Shown in pieces: positions 4,000 through 29,541 of a stretch of DNA of 39,749 bases; the first letter of the stretch is position 1; every line of letters starts with the position of its first letter. Location of the stretch: the IMG/VR virus record IMGVR_UViG_2541047827_000012. One strand, 5' to 3'. The DNA is from a virus (Duplodnaviria > Heunggongvirae > Uroviricota > Caudoviricetes). The position numbers and the translations under genes were made by a program. A model generated the notes under the pieces. The model did not search any database and was not told where the DNA came from. It saw only the letters and a list, made by a program, of their open reading frames with translations.

Positions 4000-4296
4000 T
4001 CAAATAGAGAAATAAACACAAAAACAAAAAACAACAGGAACAGCAAAATCCAACAGACTTCCCACATCCCACACGCGTGGATCAAAACCTCCCCACCACG
4101 GCATGTTGATACGTTTCCCTTTCCCAAACTTTTCTATCCAGCGATATTCTGCCTGGGTGTGTTCACGCGCAATGAAGAACGTACAACCGGCTATCGCACC
4201 GTAAGCCCAGTTTCCGGTAAAAATACCAACCAGTACCTGAGCCACAAAAGCGCAAAGCGAGTGAAGAAATGGAGTGACATCAATGCTCTTAATCAT
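4000..4296 (-). CDS. Small membrane protein of unknown function, translationally coupled to the tailspike
   Basis: 98 aa with two hydrophobic segments; start overlaps the tailspike stop; AT-rich. Confidence 0.45.
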   Translation of the reverse strand: MIKSIDVTPFLHSLCAFVAQVLVGIFTGNWAYGAIAGCTFFIAREHTQAEYRWIEKFGKGKRINMPWWGGFDPRVWDVGSLLDFAVPVVFCFCVYFSI

Positions 4297-6482
4297 GAAA
4301 CTTCCCCATTGGTTGAAAATATGGCTCCTCCAACGCCAAGTGTATTTCGTGTTGTGCTCAACCTCAGAGGGCTGGAGTCAGAATTAGAATATCCTGTAGC
4401 AGAAATAAAAGATCCTCCACTAATAGTCAACTGCGGAACATCGGCTATATCTGAATAAGTTCTGTCAGCAACAGTATTATTTATAGCCACATATGATCCA
4501 AAAAAACTTCTTATTGTTTGGTTTTTAACTTTACTTCCTTCAATGGTTATCCTACTACCACAGTCGGCAATAAATCCTGAATCTGCATCCAGCGTTGCAT
4601 TCATAAAAGAAGCTTCAGATCTCTCTACATCAATCCATCTAATATCTTTTGTGGGATTTGCACCAAATACATGACAAATATTAGAGTTAAACCTTACACC
4701 ATCTTGGAGGTGCATTAATTTTTTTATATCTGTACCCCATAGCCTTGGAAAATTAACAGATGCTCCTGCATGGCAATCAAATCCCAGCTCAGCCCCTGAG
4801 ATATCTACAGCCTTTCCTGAAATAACAGCACCAGTGTCTGCATTAACGGCTGTTCCACAATTGCGCATATCATTACCAGCAACATCAACGCAACCCGCAC
4901 CATCAATACGCACACCAAGTGCACATCCATAAAAACCTTTTTCAATATTTGGTTCAAGGACTTTACCACTTGTTTCTGCATCACTTTCTTCAACGTCATG
5001 TCGTCTTGCATCAACATATGCTGTATGAATGCAGGTTAATCCACGATATGAGCAATGTATAGTTTTATGGTCGCGTATATTAACATTTGAACCATCTCTT
5101 ACATTCCATCCTATATAACAATAGCTTGCACTTGACCCCTGAAAATCTGCTTTAACATTATAAATACAATTAACTGACGCAACCGTACTCTCTGTGCACC
5201 GTTCAAACTTGCTTACAGGCATTGATGCCTTGACATTATTTACCAGTTGCAGGGAAGAGTATCTGCTATAAGAAAAATCACATACGTAATACCCTTCTGG
5301 CATATATGCAGCAACACTTTCCTCATCAGGAGCACATCCGGTATGATATGCACTAATTTTTGCACCAAAACTACCATGAATTCCAACGTAGAACTTTCGA
5401 GCACCTGAATACGGATAGAAATTAAGTTCAGCTTTTTGAGTTACAATAAATGCACAAACATCGCTATCATCTCTATTTTCTTCGATCTGAATAGCAAATA
5501 CAGGACTTTTTGCTGCATCGCAAATGTAAAATAAATACTTGTATTCGTAATACGTTCTAACGATTTTAGTAAACAAACGAGTGTCAGAGAAAACCACTGA
5601 GTCTTCTGATGTTATTTTAATCCAAGACAAATCAACACCTGAACTGAATTCAATTTGATAGTTGATAATATGCCCGGTCTTAATTCTTATTTCGCAGAAA
5701 GCATTACCACCATCCCACATAGGTCTCATTGACTGGGCTGCAATGATTGCATCTTTGAGTGTAGGGTAATCACCCCATTCGCCAACAGTAATAACAAAAG
5801 TATAATATGAGTTAAAAACAGCGGCATTTTTGCCTTTGGATATCAACTCCTTAATCATAAAAATATTATCTTCGTAATCACAAGGAGAAATTATATCCCT
5901 CATTTTGCTTTGAAATGTTCGTTGTCTTGCCCCGCTTCCTGACGGTATAAACCAACCAAAACCACCAACAACCCCGGCGATTGCAGCATCGACATAATTA
6001 CGCATTGAGCGATTATTTACAGCGTCCTGCTCAAATGATGGATCTGCAAGGTTAGAAATTTTGTTTTGCTTTGCATCGTAATATTTTGCAAGCAAAGATG
6101 GTTTCATCAATGCACGTCTGAACCACCCAAAACATCGCTGGATCAGCATCGTCAGGTAGTCAAATGCATCTTCATGAACTTCGGGGAAAAATTTTCCCTG
6201 ATTGCGAAGATCAGTCTCCTGCACCACATCAAGCACACGCTCTATCGTAATTCGCCAGCCAGCAGCAAGCGGCGACGGGAGAACCACTTCACCGCCACTA
6301 TAAGTGCCCGCTCCAGTTACCTTATAACCGGTATCCAGAACCAATTCTGTTACGTTCCCGTTCAGGTCAGACACCTGAACAACCAGGTCGGTTTTTTTGA
6401 AAATACGGAAGGTATACGGAAATGATGTCGTAACGCCGTTACCGGTGTATTCGTTGTGGTCAACTTCGGTTGAGACCGTCAT
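4293..6482 (-). CDS. Tailspike/tail fiber: conserved T7 gp17-like N-terminal domain plus divergent C-terminal receptor-binding domain
   Basis: 729 aa; N-terminus MTVSTEVDHNEYTGNGVTTSFPYTFRIFK...DTGYKVTG follows the tail-fiber N-terminal adaptor pattern; C-terminal 500 aa is AT-rich with Gly/Ser/Asn/Cys-rich repeats typical of beta-helix receptor-binding domains. Confidence 0.8.
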   Translation of the reverse strand: MTVSTEVDHNEYTGNGVTTSFPYTFRIFKKTDLVVQVSDLNGNVTELVLDTGYKVTGAGTYSGGEVVLPSPLAAGWRITIERVLDVVQETDLRNQGKFFPEVHEDAFDYLTMLIQRCFGWFRRALMKPSLLAKYYDAKQNKISNLADPSFEQDAVNNRSMRNYVDAAIAGVVGGFGWFIPSGSGARQRTFQSKMRDIISPCDYEDNIFMIKELISKGKNAAVFNSYYTFVITVGEWGDYPTLKDAIIAAQSMRPMWDGGNAFCEIRIKTGHIINYQIEFSSGVDLSWIKITSEDSVVFSDTRLFTKIVRTYYEYKYLFYICDAAKSPVFAIQIEENRDDSDVCAFIVTQKAELNFYPYSGARKFYVGIHGSFGAKISAYHTGCAPDEESVAAYMPEGYYVCDFSYSRYSSLQLVNNVKASMPVSKFERCTESTVASVNCIYNVKADFQGSSASYCYIGWNVRDGSNVNIRDHKTIHCSYRGLTCIHTAYVDARRHDVEESDAETSGKVLEPNIEKGFYGCALGVRIDGAGCVDVAGNDMRNCGTAVNADTGAVISGKAVDISGAELGFDCHAGASVNFPRLWGTDIKKLMHLQDGVRFNSNICHVFGANPTKDIRWIDVERSEASFMNATLDADSGFIADCGSRITIEGSKVKNQTIRSFFGSYVAINNTVADRTYSDIADVPQLTISGGSFISATGYSNSDSSPLRLSTTRNTLGVGGAIFSTNGEVS

Positions 6483-6981: not shown

Positions 6982-7248
6982 ATTTACATCGCACTCCTCT
7001 TGTGCCATAGTAATCGGGCACTGGCAAAATCCAGTGCCGGGATTGGCGTCCCGAGTTACTACAGAGGCACATATGCCGCATAAGCGGTTTTTTTTATGTG
7101 TAAAGCGCACCTATTCTATGGTGGGCTGTGTGGGGGCACCGAAAGGTGCGCCGGGTCCTTTGTAGCCGGTTACGCCAACCCTGCACAGTTCACCACCAAC
7201 CGATTGGCGTCGGTAGTGGTGATTAACCTAACTACAAAGGTGATCACT

Positions 7249-7935
7249 ATGACTGCTAACGTAACCCCATCTGTTTTTCATTTTGAATCAGAAGCAACCA
7301 TTCGAGCCATTGTTATTGATGGAAATCCTTGGTTTGTTGCCAAAGACGTTATTAAAGCTCTTCAACTGACAAACCCCACTATGTCAATAAAATCTCTTGA
7401 TGATGATGAAAGGGCTAAATTTAACTTAGGCCGTCAAGGCGAAACCAATATTATCAACGAGTCAGGCCTCTACACACTGATCCTCCGCTGCCGCGATGCA
7501 GTAACACCAGGCACTATCCCCTACCGCTTTCGCAAATGGGTTACAGGTGAGGTTCTTCCTCAGATCCGCCGCACCGGAAGTTACATTAAAAACTCGCTCC
7601 CGCAGGAAGAACGCATAAAGATGGTTGCCGACCAGGTTGCAAACGCCACAGCATCAGCAGTGATGCAGGCAATGAAGATAGAGAACAAAACCTACAGCGC
7701 CCCACTGAAGCCCGGCTACCGCAGCCTGATTCATTCGCCGTCTGGTGTTCTCGGCCTGACGGAGAACTCACTGCTGATGAATTTGCTGAACCAGTTACAG
7801 GAAGACGGGCATGACGTATCGGGCGCGGCGGCGGAGCTGACTACCATGTTCTGCTACATCGTCGGTGTGAGCAAATGCCTGCGTGATATCCAGACGCACG
7901 CGGAGTACATCAACGACAAGGCAGGGTTCTTCTGA
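7249..7935 (+). CDS. Antirepressor (Bro-N domain plus KilA-C-like C-terminal domain)
   Basis: SD AAAGGTGA before ATG 7249; Bro-N pattern FHFESEATIRAIVIDGNPWFVAKDVIKALQL...ESGLYTLILRCRDAVTPGTIPYRFRKWVTGEVLPQIRRTGSYI. Confidence 0.8.
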   Translation: MTANVTPSVFHFESEATIRAIVIDGNPWFVAKDVIKALQLTNPTMSIKSLDDDERAKFNLGRQGETNIINESGLYTLILRCRDAVTPGTIPYRFRKWVTGEVLPQIRRTGSYIKNSLPQEERIKMVADQVANATASAVMQAMKIENKTYSAPLKPGYRSLIHSPSGVLGLTENSLLMNLLNQLQEDGHDVSGAAAELTTMFCYIVGVSKCLRDIQTHAEYINDKAGFF

Positions 7936-8049: not shown

Positions 8050-8259
8050 ATGGGATTTTGGTTCGCTCGTACAAAAACGAGGGATAATGCACCCAGCCCT
8101 CAGGCAAAAAATGCAGAAGTTCCGGCGTCAGCGCAGGTTAACAAGCGTGGTGGTGTGTATATCTCATCACAGCAAATTTCTGAGCTTCCTGAGGTTAAGG
8201 AGATGCGTCGTCTCGCTGCTGCAATCGTTAAACAGGATCTTGCCACTGTAAGGAAATAG
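8050..8259 (+). CDS. Hypothetical 69-aa protein, first gene of accessory operon
   Basis: Strong SD GAGGAGGAG 6 nt before ATG 8050; stop overlaps start of the next gene. Confidence 0.5.
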   Translation: MGFWFARTKTRDNAPSPQAKNAEVPASAQVNKRGGVYISSQQISELPEVKEMRRLAAAIVKQDLATVRK

Positions 8260-9125
8260 TGTTGTTAGCTCTTCTAATTATCCCCATTCTGGTTAGTGGT
8301 TATATTATGATAACCGCTAACCAGTATCATTATTTCCGTTTATACCGACATGAAGGCCAGCTTCTTTATATGAAAGTAGCTGCATTAGGTACATATTGCC
8401 TTGTTGCTTCGGTAATAATTGCCGCATTTATAAAATATAAATATCCTGATTTTCACCTAGTTCACGATATGGTGGAAACTTTTAATGTAACGTCAAAACC
8501 AGAAACAGATAGAATTTACATGTGGCTGCTTCTTCTCTCAGCCACATCCATTTGCTTCTCTTTGTGTTATGTGTCTGTTGTGTGGGTGAAAGATTTTCTT
8601 CTTGGTTGTTTTTATAAACGTGATATTTATGAGCAAAAAACAGAGGCAATGAAGGCCAGAGTACTGCGAAAAACTTACTCGCAAGGTTCTTTAGACTTAC
8701 TATTGCTTGATGCTATTGAATCGGATCCTAAACGACCAATGCTGATTACTTTATCATCAAACAAAGTGTATGTTGGAATAATAAATGGTTCTGGTGAACC
8801 AACGGAAAATCAGGGTCCGCATCAGCACATATCTTTTGTTCCTTTAATGTCAGGATACAGGAACAAAGACAACTTATCTGTCACATTCACTAATGCTTAT
8901 CCAGGAGAAATACAGGTCAAGCGGACTGCAGCAATAAGAGGAATTAGCAGAAAGAAAGTGCCAGGACTTGAGATCATGGTGTCTATTGACGAAATAAGTT
9001 ATATATCATGGTTTGATTTTGAAGTATATAAAGCAACAAATAACAAAGTAGAATCCAGGGGGCACGTTATTCGTGTTACCAAAAATGGAAGAAATATATA
9101 TCAAAGAAATAGCAAAAAAGAATAG
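8259..9125 (+). CDS. Membrane-anchored protein of unknown function (N-terminal TM helices plus 160-aa soluble domain)
   Basis: GTG start at 8259 overlapping upstream stop (SD AGGA 8251-8254); about 3 hydrophobic helices in the first 110 aa; markedly AT-rich versus flanking phage DNA; followed by a terminator. Confidence 0.6.
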   Translation: MLLALLIIPILVSGYIMITANQYHYFRLYRHEGQLLYMKVAALGTYCLVASVIIAAFIKYKYPDFHLVHDMVETFNVTSKPETDRIYMWLLLLSATSICFSLCYVSVVWVKDFLLGCFYKRDIYEQKTEAMKARVLRKTYSQGSLDLLLLDAIESDPKRPMLITLSSNKVYVGIINGSGEPTENQGPHQHISFVPLMSGYRNKDNLSVTFTNAYPGEIQVKRTAAIRGISRKKVPGLEIMVSIDEISYISWFDFEVYKATNNKVESRGHVIRVTKNGRNIYQRNSKKE

Positions 9126-9145
9126 CCCGCGCTGCGGGCTTTTTT
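9125..9145 (+). terminator. Rho-independent terminator after the membrane-protein operon
   Basis: GCCCGC-gct-GCGGGC hairpin followed by TTTTTT. Confidence 0.6.
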
Positions 9146-9217
9146 GTGGACGAAACAAAAGCCAGTGCTACACTCATTGACGCCACATTGAGGTGGCTTA
9201 TAGATGGAAATTTCACA

Positions 9218-9379
9218 ATGAAAAAAGCATTTGCTGCACTGTTCGTTTTGTTGTCTCTGGTAGCTTCAACTCAGGCCTTTGCCGGTCGTTGTCAGCACGA
9301 CAGCGATACTGCCGCTGACGGCTCCCGCTGCGGTGGGCGTTCTGCGGATTCCCGCCCGGGTGGCGGTGGCATTCGTTAA
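9218..9379 (+). CDS. Small secreted peptide (signal peptide plus about 31-aa Cys-containing mature part), hypothetical
   Basis: MKKAFAALFVLLSLVASTQAFA then GRCQHDSDTAADGSRCGG...; weak RBS; the track ORF from 9146 starts inside the upstream terminator so the internal ATG was chosen. Confidence 0.35.
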   Translation: MKKAFAALFVLLSLVASTQAFAGRCQHDSDTAADGSRCGGRSADSRPGGGGIR

Positions 9380-9401
9380 AAACAAGGCCGCGAAAGCGGC
9401 C
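9378..9401 (-). terminator. Rho-independent terminator for the minus-strand gene 9411..9707
   Basis: GGCCGC-gaaa-GCGGCC hairpin (9386-9401) followed on the minus strand by TGTTTTT. Confidence 0.55.
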
Positions 9402-9402
9402 T

Positions 9403-9414
9403 GTGACATGTCAC
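9403..9414. repeat. 12-bp palindrome GTGACATGTCAC (copy 1 of 3)
   Basis: Exact 12-mer shared with 26927-26938 and 29192-29203; overlaps the stop codon of 9411..9707 and abuts its terminator. Confidence 0.8.
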
Positions 9415-9707
9415 GTCCCTTTTCTGAATGATAGCCATTCGAAAAATGATGACATTCCACCGCAGACAATAGCAAAGATGATCCCACCAAAGAAGAGAAG
9501 GCCAGCCTGCCACCACTCCCACCGCCATACATCCACAGCGCCAACCATACCAACAATCGCTCCAACAAATGGAATATAGCTCACGATGAAAGCAATGGGG
9601 GCTGCAATTATCCAGTGCAATCCCCACCATGATTCAAGCCCAGCCATAATTGCTGCCAACTGAAAAAGACCAACGACGATATAAACAATGAATCCTATAG
9701 CTTGCAT
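9411..9707 (-). CDS. Small integral membrane protein (3 TM, Trp-rich), unknown function
   Basis: SD AGGTGA before ATG 9707; 98 aa, almost entirely hydrophobic helices. Confidence 0.55.
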   Translation of the reverse strand: MQAIGFIVYIVVGLFQLAAIMAGLESWWGLHWIIAAPIAFIVSYIPFVGAIVGMVGAVDVWRWEWWQAGLLFFGGIIFAIVCGGMSSFFEWLSFRKGT

Positions 9708-9719
9708 GTAGTCACCTAT

Positions 9720-9893
9720 TTACCCAGTAAAAATAAGAGGCCTCCCCTCAATAAGGCTTGCAACAAGAACTACTCCCTGCACAACAAAGATGAACCAGCA
9801 AATAGCTTGAGTCTGAGGGTTAAGAAAATATTTGTAGCGGTCAATAAATAACAATACACCAGAAATTATCACACTCAAAATAATTAAAAACAC
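9720..9893 (-). CDS. Putative 57-aa hydrophobic membrane peptide (GTG start), not in the supplied ORF track
   Basis: My own translation: GTG at 9893 preceded by SD AAGGAAG, encoding VFLIILSVIISGVLLFIDRYKYFLNPQTQAICWFIFVVQGVVLVASLIEGRPLIFTG; stop abuts the SD of the next gene; AT-rich. Confidence 0.35.
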   Translation of the reverse strand: MFLIILSVIISGVLLFIDRYKYFLNPQTQAICWFIFVVQGVVLVASLIEGRPLIFTG

Positions 9894-9902
9894 AACACTT
9901 CC

Positions 9903-12377
9903 TTATTGCGGAGTGACATCCTGAGGTCGCCACCAGTATGTCTGGTTAAACTCTTTCTTCGAACGTTGCTCCATTTTACGCAAATAGCCTGGTGAAAAAT
10001 ACTCCTGCATCTGGTTAAAGATCATGTGATCGAGAGCCGCCTTCAAGTACCAGAGATTCGCACCAGGCATCAAACCTTTCCCCAGCTTCACCAGATCACC
10101 ACCAGTCTGCTCACTCTTCCCTTCCACAGCATTTAACGGTATGCCCTGAGCAATCTTCACTACGTCATCAACTAGACCAGCTACCGGGCCAAGCATCGAC
10201 GCCAGCGCGCCGCTTCCGTACCTAGTGTGATCTGACAATAAAAAGTCACCGTAAAGGCCAAGACCACCACCTTTCAGTAGAGCACCAAGCCAGAATTTTG
10301 CGGCATCTTCTCCTGTCATCTCTCGAGGATTACGACCAGACGCAAGGTCGTTAAGTTGTTGCGACAAAGCGCCAAGAATGGTCGTACTGGCAATAAACGT
10401 CGCAATATATGCCGCACGCCCACCAGCAGACGGCATACCCATAGCGCGTGACCAGTGACGCATAACAACCGAGATAGGGAACGATTTAAACAGGAAAACA
10501 CTTCTCGTTAATTCACCTTTCCATGTTCCACGCTGAATACCAGAACCGGTTATCAGTTGCTCACGTGCTCCCGGTGTAATAACAGCCATATCAACTTCTT
10601 CAGTTACGGCACCGAGCAGTTTACGCATTGCCTCAAATTTCACGCGTTCAGGCTCACCAAGATGTTTAACTGCTGAATCAGGGATACGCATAATGCTTTC
10701 CGGTGTCAGCATCGTATTATTACCGTTCCCCCAGTCCTCCTGTTGCGCCAACTTCCATACGCTCCAGTCTGTGTCAGTAATCCCTTTGCTTTTCAGGATA
10801 CGAAAATCAGAGTCATCGAGGCGACGAAGGTCTGGTGTCCGTGACACTACTTCTCCCAGGCTTCCCATCATGGTTACGCCATAGGCGCGCTTGTGCGCAT
10901 CTGACCATGCTGTAAGCCCACTGGCACGCATTACCGCCGTTGCAGCCCAACGAGACACAGACGGCCCCATATTATCCATCGCCCAGCGGTTAACGCTGCC
11001 AAGTAGAGATTCCATCGCCAGACCAGCGCGGCGCGCCCGCGCAAGTTCTGTACGGTTCGTTGGGTCCATAGCTTCAAGCTGGTTGCGGAATAACTGGTTC
11101 ATTGGAAGGTTGGTAACCTTCGCAGACAGATACATGGTTCCAAGATCAGAGAACGATGACAGCAACGCGGATCCGAGTCTGCTGGCAACCAGCCAGTTGC
11201 GGATATTGTCAGACCATCGCGCGATGTGCGGATTCGCTACAGGCTGTGTCTTTCCGGAAATAAAGTTGTACAGATTCTCTGTGTTGTTCGCCAGCCGCTC
11301 GACTTTACCGGTTTTACTCGGGTTAGCTGTTGCCGTTTCTGCCTTCACCTGATCAAGAAGAGAGCGGAAAACATGATCGGGGTTTGGACCATATGTTTCC
11401 ACCAGTGCAATATCTTTACTGATACCTTCCAGGTGACCGACCATGATTTCCCATAGAGAGCGATCGCCATAAAGTTGCTGATATTGCAGATAGGAATCTG
11501 CATCTTTGAAATGTATCTGTCGTGATGCATTACCACGGTTAGCACGTGCGCCGGAAATTCGCATTCCGGTATCAGTAAGCTTATTCAGCCCACCAGTAGC
11601 GATCGTGTTATAAGCCTCTCCAAGAAATGCAGACAACTCGGCATCGTTCATCAGTTGTCCATCGGCTCGGGTATAATATTTGCGATCCAGCTTACCTATA
11701 ACATCGCTAACCCATTTATCTTTTGATACCGCCCCAACCTTTTCCATAGAATGATGTTGAGGGATCCCCCAGTTTTCGAGATAGCCAATGTCCCCACCAG
11801 CATCATTAAACCGGCGGCGCAGTAGCTCTGTCACTTCTCTCCACGCCTTAGCACCTTTTCTTGCTTTAGCATTGCCAGTATTTTGCCCCCGCATTTCATA
11901 TACCAGGTCACGTACGCCCGCTTCATCTTCAAACAGACCAAAAAAGCGAGGATCAACTGCTTCGAATGCCTCCTGCAATTGACTCAATGCATAATCACGG
12001 GTGGCTTTTGTTCTGGATTCAACAGAGAGGAAATTCGATTTACCGTCTGCATTAAAAGCAATAGTACGGTTAAGAGCGCCAAGTTTCCCATCAGCCCCTT
12101 GATAGCTATTGATAAATTTATCCAATCTCTGACGTGCGGCTATAGTGAGGGCCACACGACGTTTCTTTAATGCCGCTTCTCGCTGTAATTCTTCAGATGC
12201 CAATTGTGCTGCACGATACAGCCGCTCTGATTCGGAAAGTTGTCGCCACGACATCGGGTCATCACGAGCAATGGAGCGCATATTTCGATAAATGCGGTCT
12301 TCAATGTTCTGTATTTCTCGCGCCGTTAACGTGCGCTGCGCCGCCTGCTGGACCGCTTGTATACATTCCTGTCTCAT
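9903..12377 (-). CDS. Internal virion/ejection protein (824 aa), T7 gp16-like position
   Basis: Large protein at the distal end of the structural operon; no enzymatic motif recognised; assignment by position. Confidence 0.65.
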   Translation of the reverse strand: MRQECIQAVQQAAQRTLTAREIQNIEDRIYRNMRSIARDDPMSWRQLSESERLYRAAQLASEELQREAALKKRRVALTIAARQRLDKFINSYQGADGKLGALNRTIAFNADGKSNFLSVESRTKATRDYALSQLQEAFEAVDPRFFGLFEDEAGVRDLVYEMRGQNTGNAKARKGAKAWREVTELLRRRFNDAGGDIGYLENWGIPQHHSMEKVGAVSKDKWVSDVIGKLDRKYYTRADGQLMNDAELSAFLGEAYNTIATGGLNKLTDTGMRISGARANRGNASRQIHFKDADSYLQYQQLYGDRSLWEIMVGHLEGISKDIALVETYGPNPDHVFRSLLDQVKAETATANPSKTGKVERLANNTENLYNFISGKTQPVANPHIARWSDNIRNWLVASRLGSALLSSFSDLGTMYLSAKVTNLPMNQLFRNQLEAMDPTNRTELARARRAGLAMESLLGSVNRWAMDNMGPSVSRWAATAVMRASGLTAWSDAHKRAYGVTMMGSLGEVVSRTPDLRRLDDSDFRILKSKGITDTDWSVWKLAQQEDWGNGNNTMLTPESIMRIPDSAVKHLGEPERVKFEAMRKLLGAVTEEVDMAVITPGAREQLITGSGIQRGTWKGELTRSVFLFKSFPISVVMRHWSRAMGMPSAGGRAAYIATFIASTTILGALSQQLNDLASGRNPREMTGEDAAKFWLGALLKGGGLGLYGDFLLSDHTRYGSGALASMLGPVAGLVDDVVKIAQGIPLNAVEGKSEQTGGDLVKLGKGLMPGANLWYLKAALDHMIFNQMQEYFSPGYLRKMEQRSKKEFNQTYWWRPQDVTPQ

Positions 12378-23691: not shown

Positions 23692-23984
23692 TCCTGTTCA
23701 CTGGCCTCTTTGGCCATCTTCAAATACTGTTCAGGGCAATGCGCCATAACGCGCTGAAACAGTTCCAGCGCCAGATTGCGTTGCCCCTCATTAAATGCCA
23801 TTGCCATAGCGTCCATCGGTGAGATAGCGGAAAACACACGGCCTTTCTCCAGCACCGACCAGACAACGCGACGCCCCTGTTCACTGCTCATGACAAAGCG
23901 AATGTCATCAATTTCACGCTGTGCCATGTCACGTTGCTTACGGGCGCTTTCTTCTTTCAGTTGATCATCTTCGTAATCTGTCAT
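23688..23984 (-). CDS. Hypothetical head protein (98 aa)
   Basis: Overlaps portal stop and scaffold start by 4 nt each. Confidence 0.5.
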   Translation of the reverse strand: MTDYEDDQLKEESARKQRDMAQREIDDIRFVMSSEQGRRVVWSVLEKGRVFSAISPMDAMAMAFNEGQRNLALELFQRVMAHCPEQYLKMAKEASEQE

Positions 23985-26926: not shown

Positions 26927-26938
26927 GTGACATGTCAC
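26927..26938. repeat. 12-bp palindrome GTGACATGTCAC (copy 2 of 3)
   Basis: Exact 12-mer, 5 bp after the gp49-like stop and 4 bp before the terminator hairpin. Confidence 0.8.
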
Positions 26939-29191: not shown

Positions 29192-29203
29192 GTGACATGT
29201 CAC
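29192..29203. repeat. 12-bp palindrome GTGACATGTCAC (copy 3 of 3)
   Basis: Exact 12-mer overlapping the stop codon of 29200..29541, about 40 nt upstream (minus direction) of the terminator at 29123-29150. Confidence 0.8.
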
Positions 29204-29541
29204 ACTATTAATTTCGTTTCATGCCAGCCTTTAGTCACCCAGCATTGCGAGTCACCATTGCACGGGCATGAATTAACTGGAACTCTCTCGCCGCACTTAC
29301 CGCAACGTTTTCTGCTGATCGATTTTATACGCCCGCGCACGCGTGCATCATCCTGGCGGATCAGTAACGCTATATACTCACCAAATTCGTAAGGTGCACG
29401 CCCGGGGCGACGCGTGGCACAGTTACGCTCCAGCATTTCAATTTCCTGAGCATCAAGCACAATCTCCAGCTTACGCACACCAGATGCAGCTTGTCTGGCT
29501 CTCTGAGCGGCTTTGCGCTCTGCTGCTGATTTAGCCATCAA
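29200..29541 (-). CDS. Small Arg-rich protein with C-terminal Cys cluster (putative zinc-finger regulator)
   Basis: 113 aa; C-terminus CGKCGERVPVNSCPCNGDSQC (C-x2-C...C-x-C); last gene before the late-operon terminator. Confidence 0.5.
   Translation of the reverse strand: MMAKSAAERKAAQRARQAASGVRKLEIVLDAQEIEMLERNCATRRPGRAPYEFGEYIALLIRQDDARVRGRIKSISRKRCGKCGERVPVNSCPCNGDSQCWVTKGWHETKLIV

Follow-up and report, generated by a model that had tools for sequence, protein, structure and literature searches.

The 39,749-nucleotide (nt) stretch of DNA analysed here (IMG/VR record IMGVR_UViG_2541047827_000012, referred to below as the window) is essentially the entire genome of a temperate Escherichia coli podophage, a Uetakevirus of the epsilon15/phiV10-like kind, and it carries two small genes, ORF1 and ORF2 (open reading frames, ORFs, of 57 and 98 amino acids, aa), directly behind the last large gene of the ejection-protein operon. 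We consider it highly probable that both are real, mutually independent and dispensable membrane-protein cassettes that occupy a hot spot, referred to here as the slot. Our overall interpretation adds a function to this, and reads ORF1 and ORF2 as two independent promoter-less accessory cassettes at an ejection-operon hot spot which most likely serve exclusion; taken as a whole we hold it with a confidence that falls somewhat short of even. The ORF1–ORF2 region is 99.3–99.6% identical to that of Escherichia phages HEMP4 and phiv142-3.

Two small genes for predicted membrane proteins

Comparison of alleles shows ORF1 and ORF2 both to be protein-coding genes, evidently under purifying selection. 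Against alleles of the Klebsiella group, with 70–79% identity, the ratio of nonsynonymous to synonymous substitution rates (dN/dS) of ORF1 is 0.20–0.27, and that of ORF2 against the alleles of Klebsiella phages is 0.02–0.04. The ORF1 reading frame is intact in all ~48 related E. coli-type loci, where the start is GTG or, in two of them, TTG, and the Klebsiella relatives have GGGGAGGGGAGC-TTG at this position, which provides a strong Shine–Dalgarno (SD) motif followed by a TTG start. The two ORFs might be read as chance frames in a non-coding 3′ region, and ORF1 is indeed short, GTG-initiated and missing from most annotations (including RefSeq NZ_CP033884 and most phage records). However, dN/dS is far below 1 in both, the frames and start positions are kept across the 70–79% identical alleles, SD motifs precede both ORFs, the sole 1-nt indel is confined to the spacer between them, and an Rfam scan of positions 9100–10100 returned only sub-threshold noise; the chance-ORF reading, already refuted for ORF2, is hardly credible for the pair. 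A first-pass annotation of this DNA, which had proposed a GTG-initiated peptide of 57 aa missed by annotation and had taken both products for real small integral-membrane proteins, was therefore right on both counts, given the dN/dS values and the homolog families and hydropathy profiles described below.

The ORF1 protein (MFLIILSVIISGVLLFIDRYKYFLNPQTQAICWFIFVVQGVVLVASLIEGRPLIFTG) has two hydrophobic segments with DRYKY between them, and by the positive-inside rule would insert as an N-out/C-out hairpin. Its gene deviates in base composition, with a guanine–cytosine (GC) content of 36.2% vs 49% for the window, and the difference is marginal for ORF2 (46.5%), so that the AT-richness claimed for both genes in the first-pass annotation holds for ORF1 and not for ORF2. 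The ORF1 family consists of eight homolog clusters from E. coli, Citrobacter, Salmonella, Enterobacter and Klebsiella, and is related to a 54-aa type found at the first position of the slot in locus L074 and in phage ZX5 (hhalign 92.8%). No similarity was detected to phiV10p21 (PHROG 7892) or epsilon15 gp18 (PHROG 29212), nor to the epsilon15 alpha-polymerase inhibitor gp22. We also considered a terminator-like hairpin in the 3′ end of ORF1 (9734–9750) as an insulator of ORF2, and rejected it, since its fold is not better than that of shuffled sequence (z = +0.89) and the ORF1 alleles of Klebsiella, Salmonella and Enterobacter do not share it.

ORF2 was described in the first-pass annotation as a Trp-rich protein with three transmembrane (TM) segments, and this description stands. 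Tryptophan makes up eight of its 98 residues (8.2%), the hydropathy profile has three hydrophobic segments followed by a short basic C-terminus, and an AlphaFold2 model built from a 29-sequence alignment, with a mean predicted local distance difference test (pLDDT) score of 90.9, places helices at residues 2–28, 32–42 plus 46–59 (with a kink at Y44/P46) and 65–97. By the positive-inside rule ORF2 would insert as an N-out/C-in three-helix bundle, with the Trp-rich loop VDVWRWEWWQ at the periplasmic interface. From the hydropathy of both proteins and the model of ORF2, we infer that the two products are probably located in the cytoplasmic membrane.

The whole of ORF2 (residues 1–98) matches PHROG 3075 (positions 1–98 of 98; E = 1.6e-54, 183.7 bits), and we identified 52 homologous clusters of ~98 aa in the Enterobacterales, down to ~45% identity and with 13 invariant columns. 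An exhaustive profile search extended this to 749 representative clusters at E<=1e-3, including 320 at E<=1e-10, and ORF2 has the family motif GxxQxxA...Y(I/T)PxxGxIxGxxGA...WxWxWxQAxLLFF; a Pfam scan of 33 longer homologs found some fused to DUF805, RDD or MORN domains, which were the only partners seen and are uninformative. The chromosomal neighbours of ORF2 homologs in Microvirga, Buttiauxella, Desulfovibrio and others include aconitase/GntR, MutS/ComM, UmuDC and a DnaJ-domain protein, and together with the domain fusions this leads us to place ORF2 in a broad family of bacterial membrane domains, as yet without a name, which enterobacterial phages have acquired. Pfam, NCBIfam and PADLOC scans with ORF1 and ORF2 gave nothing above threshold, the ORF2 family is not present in Pfam, NCBIfam, PADLOC or PDB, fold searches of PDB and BFVD with the ORF2 model yielded nothing significant, PDB contains no protein related to ORF2 in sequence, and we found nothing published on the ORF2 gene. 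The family is already catalogued, as PHROG 3075, yet all of its members are uncharacterised, and ORF1 and ORF2 are phage accessory membrane proteins. We note that in Alphaproteobacteria including Microvirga (L094, L095 and L097, at ~5280–5650) a small DUF6804 membrane protein often follows the distant chromosomal ORF2 homolog on the same strand, which suggests that the two form a conserved two-gene membrane module outside phages.

The first-pass annotation had also offered a holin-like pair. In its size (~100 aa), its three TM segments in a predicted N-out/C-in orientation and its short basic C-terminus, ORF2 does resemble class I holins, it matches Phage_holin_5_2 (PF16079) weakly (E = 0.027), and its expression appears to be late. 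However, that match scores 15.2 bits vs a Pfam gathering threshold of 29.2 and is found in only four of 29 family members, the lysis cassette (a 3-TM protein, a DUF754 holin, endolysin and spanins, the equivalents of phiV10 p27–p30a) is complete elsewhere, and no endolysin adjoins ORF2 in any context examined. Given in addition that ORF1 and ORF2 are not an obligate pair, that non-phage homologs and domain fusions exist, and that the fold searches were without significant match, a role in lysis timing, whether as a holin/antiholin-like pair or as an extra late holin, is very unlikely.

A variable slot behind the ejection gene

The slot is bordered on the left by the stop codon of the gene equivalent to epsilon15 gp17 and on the right by a palindrome and terminator; both borders are kept and the DNA between them is replaced. 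The 824-aa product of the upstream gene matches PHROG 684 'virion structural protein' (E = 0), is 94–99% identical to its SPN1S and PAS61 homologs, and has its equivalents in epsilon15 gp17 and in phiV10 p20, which is in the matching position. Epsilon15 gp17 belongs to the T7 gp16 (IVP-D) family of internal virion/ejection proteins (Hardies et al., PMC4819975), and the first-pass wording that placed ORF1 and ORF2 at the distal end of an ejection-protein operon is therefore fair, since both lie 3′ of this T7-gp16-like gene.

We surveyed the slot in the 80 closest IMG/VR contigs, in which the C-terminus of the gp17-like protein is 96–100% identical to that of the window. ORF1 plus ORF2 were found in 39 of these, a 46/48-aa TM-hairpin ORF alone in 29, the arrangement of ZX5 (a small ORF, frameshifted in every case, plus a 126-aa lipoprotein) in eight, and the lipoprotein alone, directly behind the gp17-like gene, in one; the slot is empty in one further contig and the remaining two end short of it. 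There are thus four different slot contents behind a near-identical upstream protein. Among isolated phages, phiV10, PAS61 and SPN1S have a single unrelated 46-aa two-TM ORF (PHROG 7892), epsilon15 has gp18, a two-TM protein of 64 aa encoded by a gene that overlaps the gp17 stop at its start and has its TGA inside the same palindrome, and ZX5 has a small two-TM ORF plus the 126-aa lipoprotein (LVGC lipobox, PHROG 3716). It should be noted that an identical frameshift splits the small two-TM ORF in ZX5 (L009, 1568–2198) and in eight IMG/VR loci (among L109–L188). The phiV10 p21 and epsilon15 gp18 proteins are positional equivalents of ORF1, being TM hairpins of 46–64 aa encoded between an IVP-D-like gene and the palindrome/terminator, but they have no detectable sequence relationship to ORF1, which resembles the 54-aa type of ZX5 and L074 instead. 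All alternative cargoes that we found are directed to the envelope, be they small TM hairpins, a lipoprotein or secreted proteins, and from such varied contents between fixed borders we conclude that the slot is a hot spot for promoter-less envelope-protein cassettes. The full ORF1+ORF2 cassette is present in 205 of 5426 complete E. coli genomes (~4%).

The isolated phages phiV10, epsilon15, SPN1S and PAS61 are viable without ORF2, and a frameshift disrupts the slot-1 ORF of ZX5, likewise an isolated phage, and of eight contigs, which shows that ORF1 and ORF2 are dispensable for phage growth. This bears on whether the two might be partners of the ejection machinery, which assemble, chaperone or receive the T7-gp16-like protein at the membrane, or might be minor virion components, as the first-pass annotation had proposed with its virion membrane-interacting proteins. 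A small TM ORF does stand behind the gp17-like gene in nearly all Uetakeviruses, with the epsilon15 gp18 start even overlapping the gene before it, and ORF2 homologs with 54–61% identity are found directly behind IVP-D-like genes in Cronobacter and in T7-like prophages of Salmonella. Against this, however, four unrelated contents stand behind the same upstream protein (96–100%), the slot-1 gene is frameshifted in a viable phage, some slots hold a lipoprotein or a secreted protein alone, and other settings of ORF2 include a siphovirus prophage, the vicinity of an integrase and non-phage chromosomes. The virion proteins of epsilon15 reported from mass spectrometry are not known to include gp18. 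We regard a partnership with the ejection machinery as decidedly improbable.

The idea of a functional coupled pair did not survive comparison with related loci, as ORF1 and ORF2 assort independently of each other. In Salmonella and Enterobacter prophages the gene that follows ORF1 (alleles with 74–77% identity) codes for a two-TM protein of 92 aa instead of ORF2, and ORF2 is preceded elsewhere by the 54-aa hairpin (L074), a 103-aa two-TM protein (L059) or secreted proteins with signal peptides (L082, L061/L049 and L092). In Cronobacter and in a T7-like prophage of Salmonella there is no slot-1 gene, and ORF2 follows after a gap of 1 nt and 35 nt, respectively. Translational coupling had been claimed too, and here the close spacing of the two genes is borne out, but they do not overlap and related loci tolerate an indel of 1 nt in the spacer, so that coupling is no more than a possibility. 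The 1-nt insertion is found in the spacer of phiv142-3 (L001, 6235–6591) and several contigs, where it opens an out-of-frame upstream extension, and the 118-aa 'Orf12' of the GenBank phiv142-3 record is therefore ORF2 with an artificial extension into ORF1, which that record leaves unannotated.

The conserved DNA that moves with ORF2 runs from ~14 nt before the ATG (ATAGGTGACTACATG) to the palindrome, and ATAGGTGAC(T/C)ACATG is kept upstream of ORF2 behind four different preceding genes; since the conserved unit begins so close to the start codon, ORF2 appears to travel as an SD+ORF unit without a promoter of its own. ORF2 alleles that are 94–100% identical adjoin gp17-like proteins of just 24–27% identity, which indicates horizontal transfer between podophage lineages. 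In a Yersinia podophage an opposite-strand gene separates the ORF2 homolog (59% identity) from the large virion proteins, a 70% identical homolog stands free where a lambda-like siphovirus prophage ends, flanked by the tail-fibre genes on one side and by DinI and the host Peptidase_M1 (pepN-like) gene on the other, and a homolog with 52% identity adjoins an integrase. Judging by these neighbourhoods ORF2 is not tied to ejection proteins, and the comparison shows that ORF1 and ORF2 have evidently been exchanged horizontally, each independently of the other. We also note that GTGAC brackets the ORF2 cassette, within the conserved start (9705–9719) and within GGGACGTGACATGTCAC at the end (9403–9416); these repeats may have served as microhomology for cassette insertion, although 5 bp is too short for significance.

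Transcription, the palindrome and neighbouring genes

The GTG of ORF1 lies 9 nt past the TAA stop of the 824-aa gene and the ATG of ORF2 12 nt past the stop of ORF1 (Table 1). A search for sigma-70 promoters upstream of and inside ORF1 gave a best score no better than that in 92% of same-sized genome windows, and an extended −10 candidate, TGTGATAAT, was rejected as it is not conserved in relatives. Because both spacers are this short, each ORF has its own SD, no promoter rises above background, and a single terminator follows ORF2, the two genes are probably transcribed as the tail of the late operon. The terminator hairpin (9385–9402, followed by TGTTTTT) has a fold energy of −17.2 kcal/mol (z = −2.0), and a perfect palindrome lies next to it; the first-pass annotation had likewise described the ORFs as ending with a terminator plus a palindrome.

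Table 1. Coordinates and strands of the features in and around the slot of the window.
Feature	Position	Strand	Remarks
Internal virion/ejection protein gene, 824 aa	9903..12377	-	Final large operon gene; its stop codon is the left slot border
Spacer, 9 nt, with the ORF1 Shine–Dalgarno motif GGAAG	9894..9902	-	Sequence TAAGGAAGTGTTGTG
ORF1, 57 aa, GTG start, two-TM hairpin	9720..9893	-	AT-rich cassette, slot position 1
Spacer, 12 nt, with the ORF2 Shine–Dalgarno motif AGGTGA	9708..9719	-	Left edge of the ORF2 cassette
ORF2, 98 aa, ATG start, Trp-rich, three-TM, predicted inner-membrane protein	9411..9707	-	Slot position 2
Perfect 12-bp palindrome GTGACATGTCAC	9403-9414	.	Right border of the slot; ORF2 TGA stop inside
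Intrinsic terminator	9375..9402	-	AGGCCGC-TTTC-GCGGCCT then TGTTTTTAAC; closes the late/ejection operon; common to the convergent gene 9218..9379

Three exact copies of GTGACATGTCAC are found in the window (9403–9414, 26927–26938 and 29192–29203), with a fourth at 23921–23932 that has one mismatch. The copy at 26927 follows the stop of an accessory gene on the plus strand, located between terminase and portal, and is itself followed by a terminator, and the copy at 29192 lies between a 113-aa regulator (29200..29541, PHROG 536), whose TGA is inside it, and the small terminase gene; stop codons within copies of the palindrome are thus seen for ORF2, epsilon15 gp18 and the 113-aa regulator. In phiV10 there are copies in corresponding positions, and the point at which the GenBank record of that phage is linearised falls within one of them, at its middle. 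The slot-end palindrome is conserved in phiV10, epsilon15, SPN1S, PAS61, ZX5 and the Cronobacter prophages (in which the gp17-like protein is 24% identical), and it is invariant beside terminator stems which differ between relatives. It may bind a protein, mark a boundary for cassette exchange, or form a second, small hairpin through which the terminator works in both directions.

The order of genes here is the gp17-like ejection gene, ORF1 and ORF2, a Bro-N/Ant antirepressor (7096..7935) and the tailspike (4293..6482). Between the antirepressor and the slot are two further genes on the plus strand. The first (8259–9125, AT-rich with 36–39% GC) encodes a 288-aa protein with N-terminal TM segments (PHROG 3630), which had no match in Pfam and PADLOC scans, and a terminator is located at its end (9124–9140); toxin–antitoxin genes (YafO, HicA/DUF1902) occupy the same place in relatives, and the 288-aa protein may for this reason be further defence or accessory cargo. 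The second (9218–9379; PHROG 14503, WP_000708858.1) is convergent to ORF2, shares the terminator with it, and encodes a 53-aa protein with a signal peptide (MKKAFAALFVLLSLVASTQAFAGRCQHDSDTAADGSRCGGRSADSRPGGGGIR). This gene travels together with the palindrome and terminator in other prophage types, e.g. TL-2011b, and ~250 additional E. coli genomes match our query only over this 36-nt end.

Possible functions and comparison with known systems

The function that we consider most likely is superinfection exclusion at the inner membrane, one of the readings that the first-pass annotation had offered, and we put it forward tentatively, as a possible but still doubtful assignment which draws on the analogy with the P22 sieA locus and on the envelope targeting of every alternative cassette. 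Each protein would act alone at the cytoplasmic membrane on an envelope step of phage infection, and the DNA entry of superinfecting phages would be blocked, as it is by P22 SieA and by T4 Imm and HK97 gp15, which also block DNA entry; ORF2 would then be a host-derived membrane domain recruited for exclusion.

Alternatively, ORF2 could be a captured bacterial protein that benefits the lysogen through lysogenic conversion or host physiology unrelated to exclusion (e.g. ion, stress or envelope homeostasis), with the small ORF1 protein independently modulating a membrane enzyme of the host, as is annotated for the two-TM epsilon15 gp22. The size of the ORF2 domain family and its fusions with DUF805, RDD and MORN are consistent with this, as are the non-phage homologs located after umuDC (Buttiauxella) and near aconitase/GntR or MutS beside DUF6804 (Microvirga), the extreme conservation of the ORF2 sequence whatever the phage type, its free-standing position at prophage ends, and the annotation of gp22 as a small two-TM O-antigen alpha-polymerase inhibitor. 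However, the window yielded no promoter that would serve expression in lysogens, ORF1 is without similarity to gp22, and orf12 (= ORF2) is not among the phiv142-3 genes reported as serum-induced. We therefore consider a host-physiological role rather unlikely, and a serotype-specific one is unlikely too, because ORF2 spans genera with different O antigens.

A more far-reaching version of the exclusion reading would make the slot a dedicated cassette-exchange site among unrelated podophages, with ORF2 founding an exclusion family and the palindrome organising the exchanges. The ORF2 family would then block T7-gp16-type ejectosomes, or a conserved host membrane factor that they need, and the palindrome, further copies of which lie where the late operon starts and at another accessory insertion, would act as a recombination or regulatory signal. 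We regard this extension as improbable.

If ORF1, ORF2 or the alternative cassettes do act in exclusion, the slot would be a compact and easily mined source of new inner-membrane exclusion factors, with relevance for the host range of therapeutic phages in E. coli, Klebsiella, Salmonella and Cronobacter, and would open the passage of T7-gp16-like ejection proteins across the cytoplasmic membrane to genetic study; through ORF2, functional work could also begin on a large bacterial family of membrane proteins that has no name so far. Should the genes have no measurable effect, the slot would simply be a well-documented accessory hot spot.

The best conceptual analogue is the sieA locus of P22. 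SieA is a three-TM inner-membrane protein whose gene is flanked by gene 16, the last of the ejection genes, and the ant/tailspike region, sieA is carried by 22 of 66 P22-like phages, and the protein blocks DNA delivery via the ejection-protein conduit, a block that mutations in gp16 and gp20, both ejection proteins, can overcome (PMC10883804). ORF2 is likewise a predicted three-TM protein, accessory in a temperate podophage, and encoded between an ejection gene and the antirepressor/tailspike region. However, SieA is 162–164 aa long vs 98 aa for ORF2, its cytoplasmic motif FxRYPxEAxxFNK (PMC10883804) is present neither in ORF2, which ends in ...SSFFEWLSFRKGT, nor in the alignment of its family, and the likeness to the sieA locus is limited to position.

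Several observations weigh against exclusion as the function of ORF1 and ORF2. No homology between ORF2 and P22 SieA was detected (BLASTP E = 20; hhalign probability of 0.2% with the family alignment), and neither ORF1 and ORF2 nor the two accessory genes beside them matched any PADLOC-DB profile at E<=1. The sieA gene is on the opposite strand with its own promoter, whereas ORF1 and ORF2 are on the late-operon strand with no promoter found, and as a protein that protects a lysogen must be made in lysogens, this lack weakens the case. The supplementary table of a quantitative reverse transcription PCR study of phiv142-3, which covers serum-induced genes only, does not list orf12. Finally, the near-identical ORF2 alleles beside very different ejection proteins would fit a general membrane or physiological role equally well, and the same may be said of the distant ORF2 homologs, which are ordinary chromosomal genes.

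A second comparison can be made with T4 Imm and with classical morons in the lambda/HK97 sense, of which HK97 gp15 is an example. ORF1 and ORF2 differ from morons in having no detected promoter of their own, being SD+ORF units that rely on upstream transcription, and only ORF1 has the deviant base composition, but they are like them in that their presence varies among close relatives, a terminator follows, and each is predicted to be a small inner-membrane protein.

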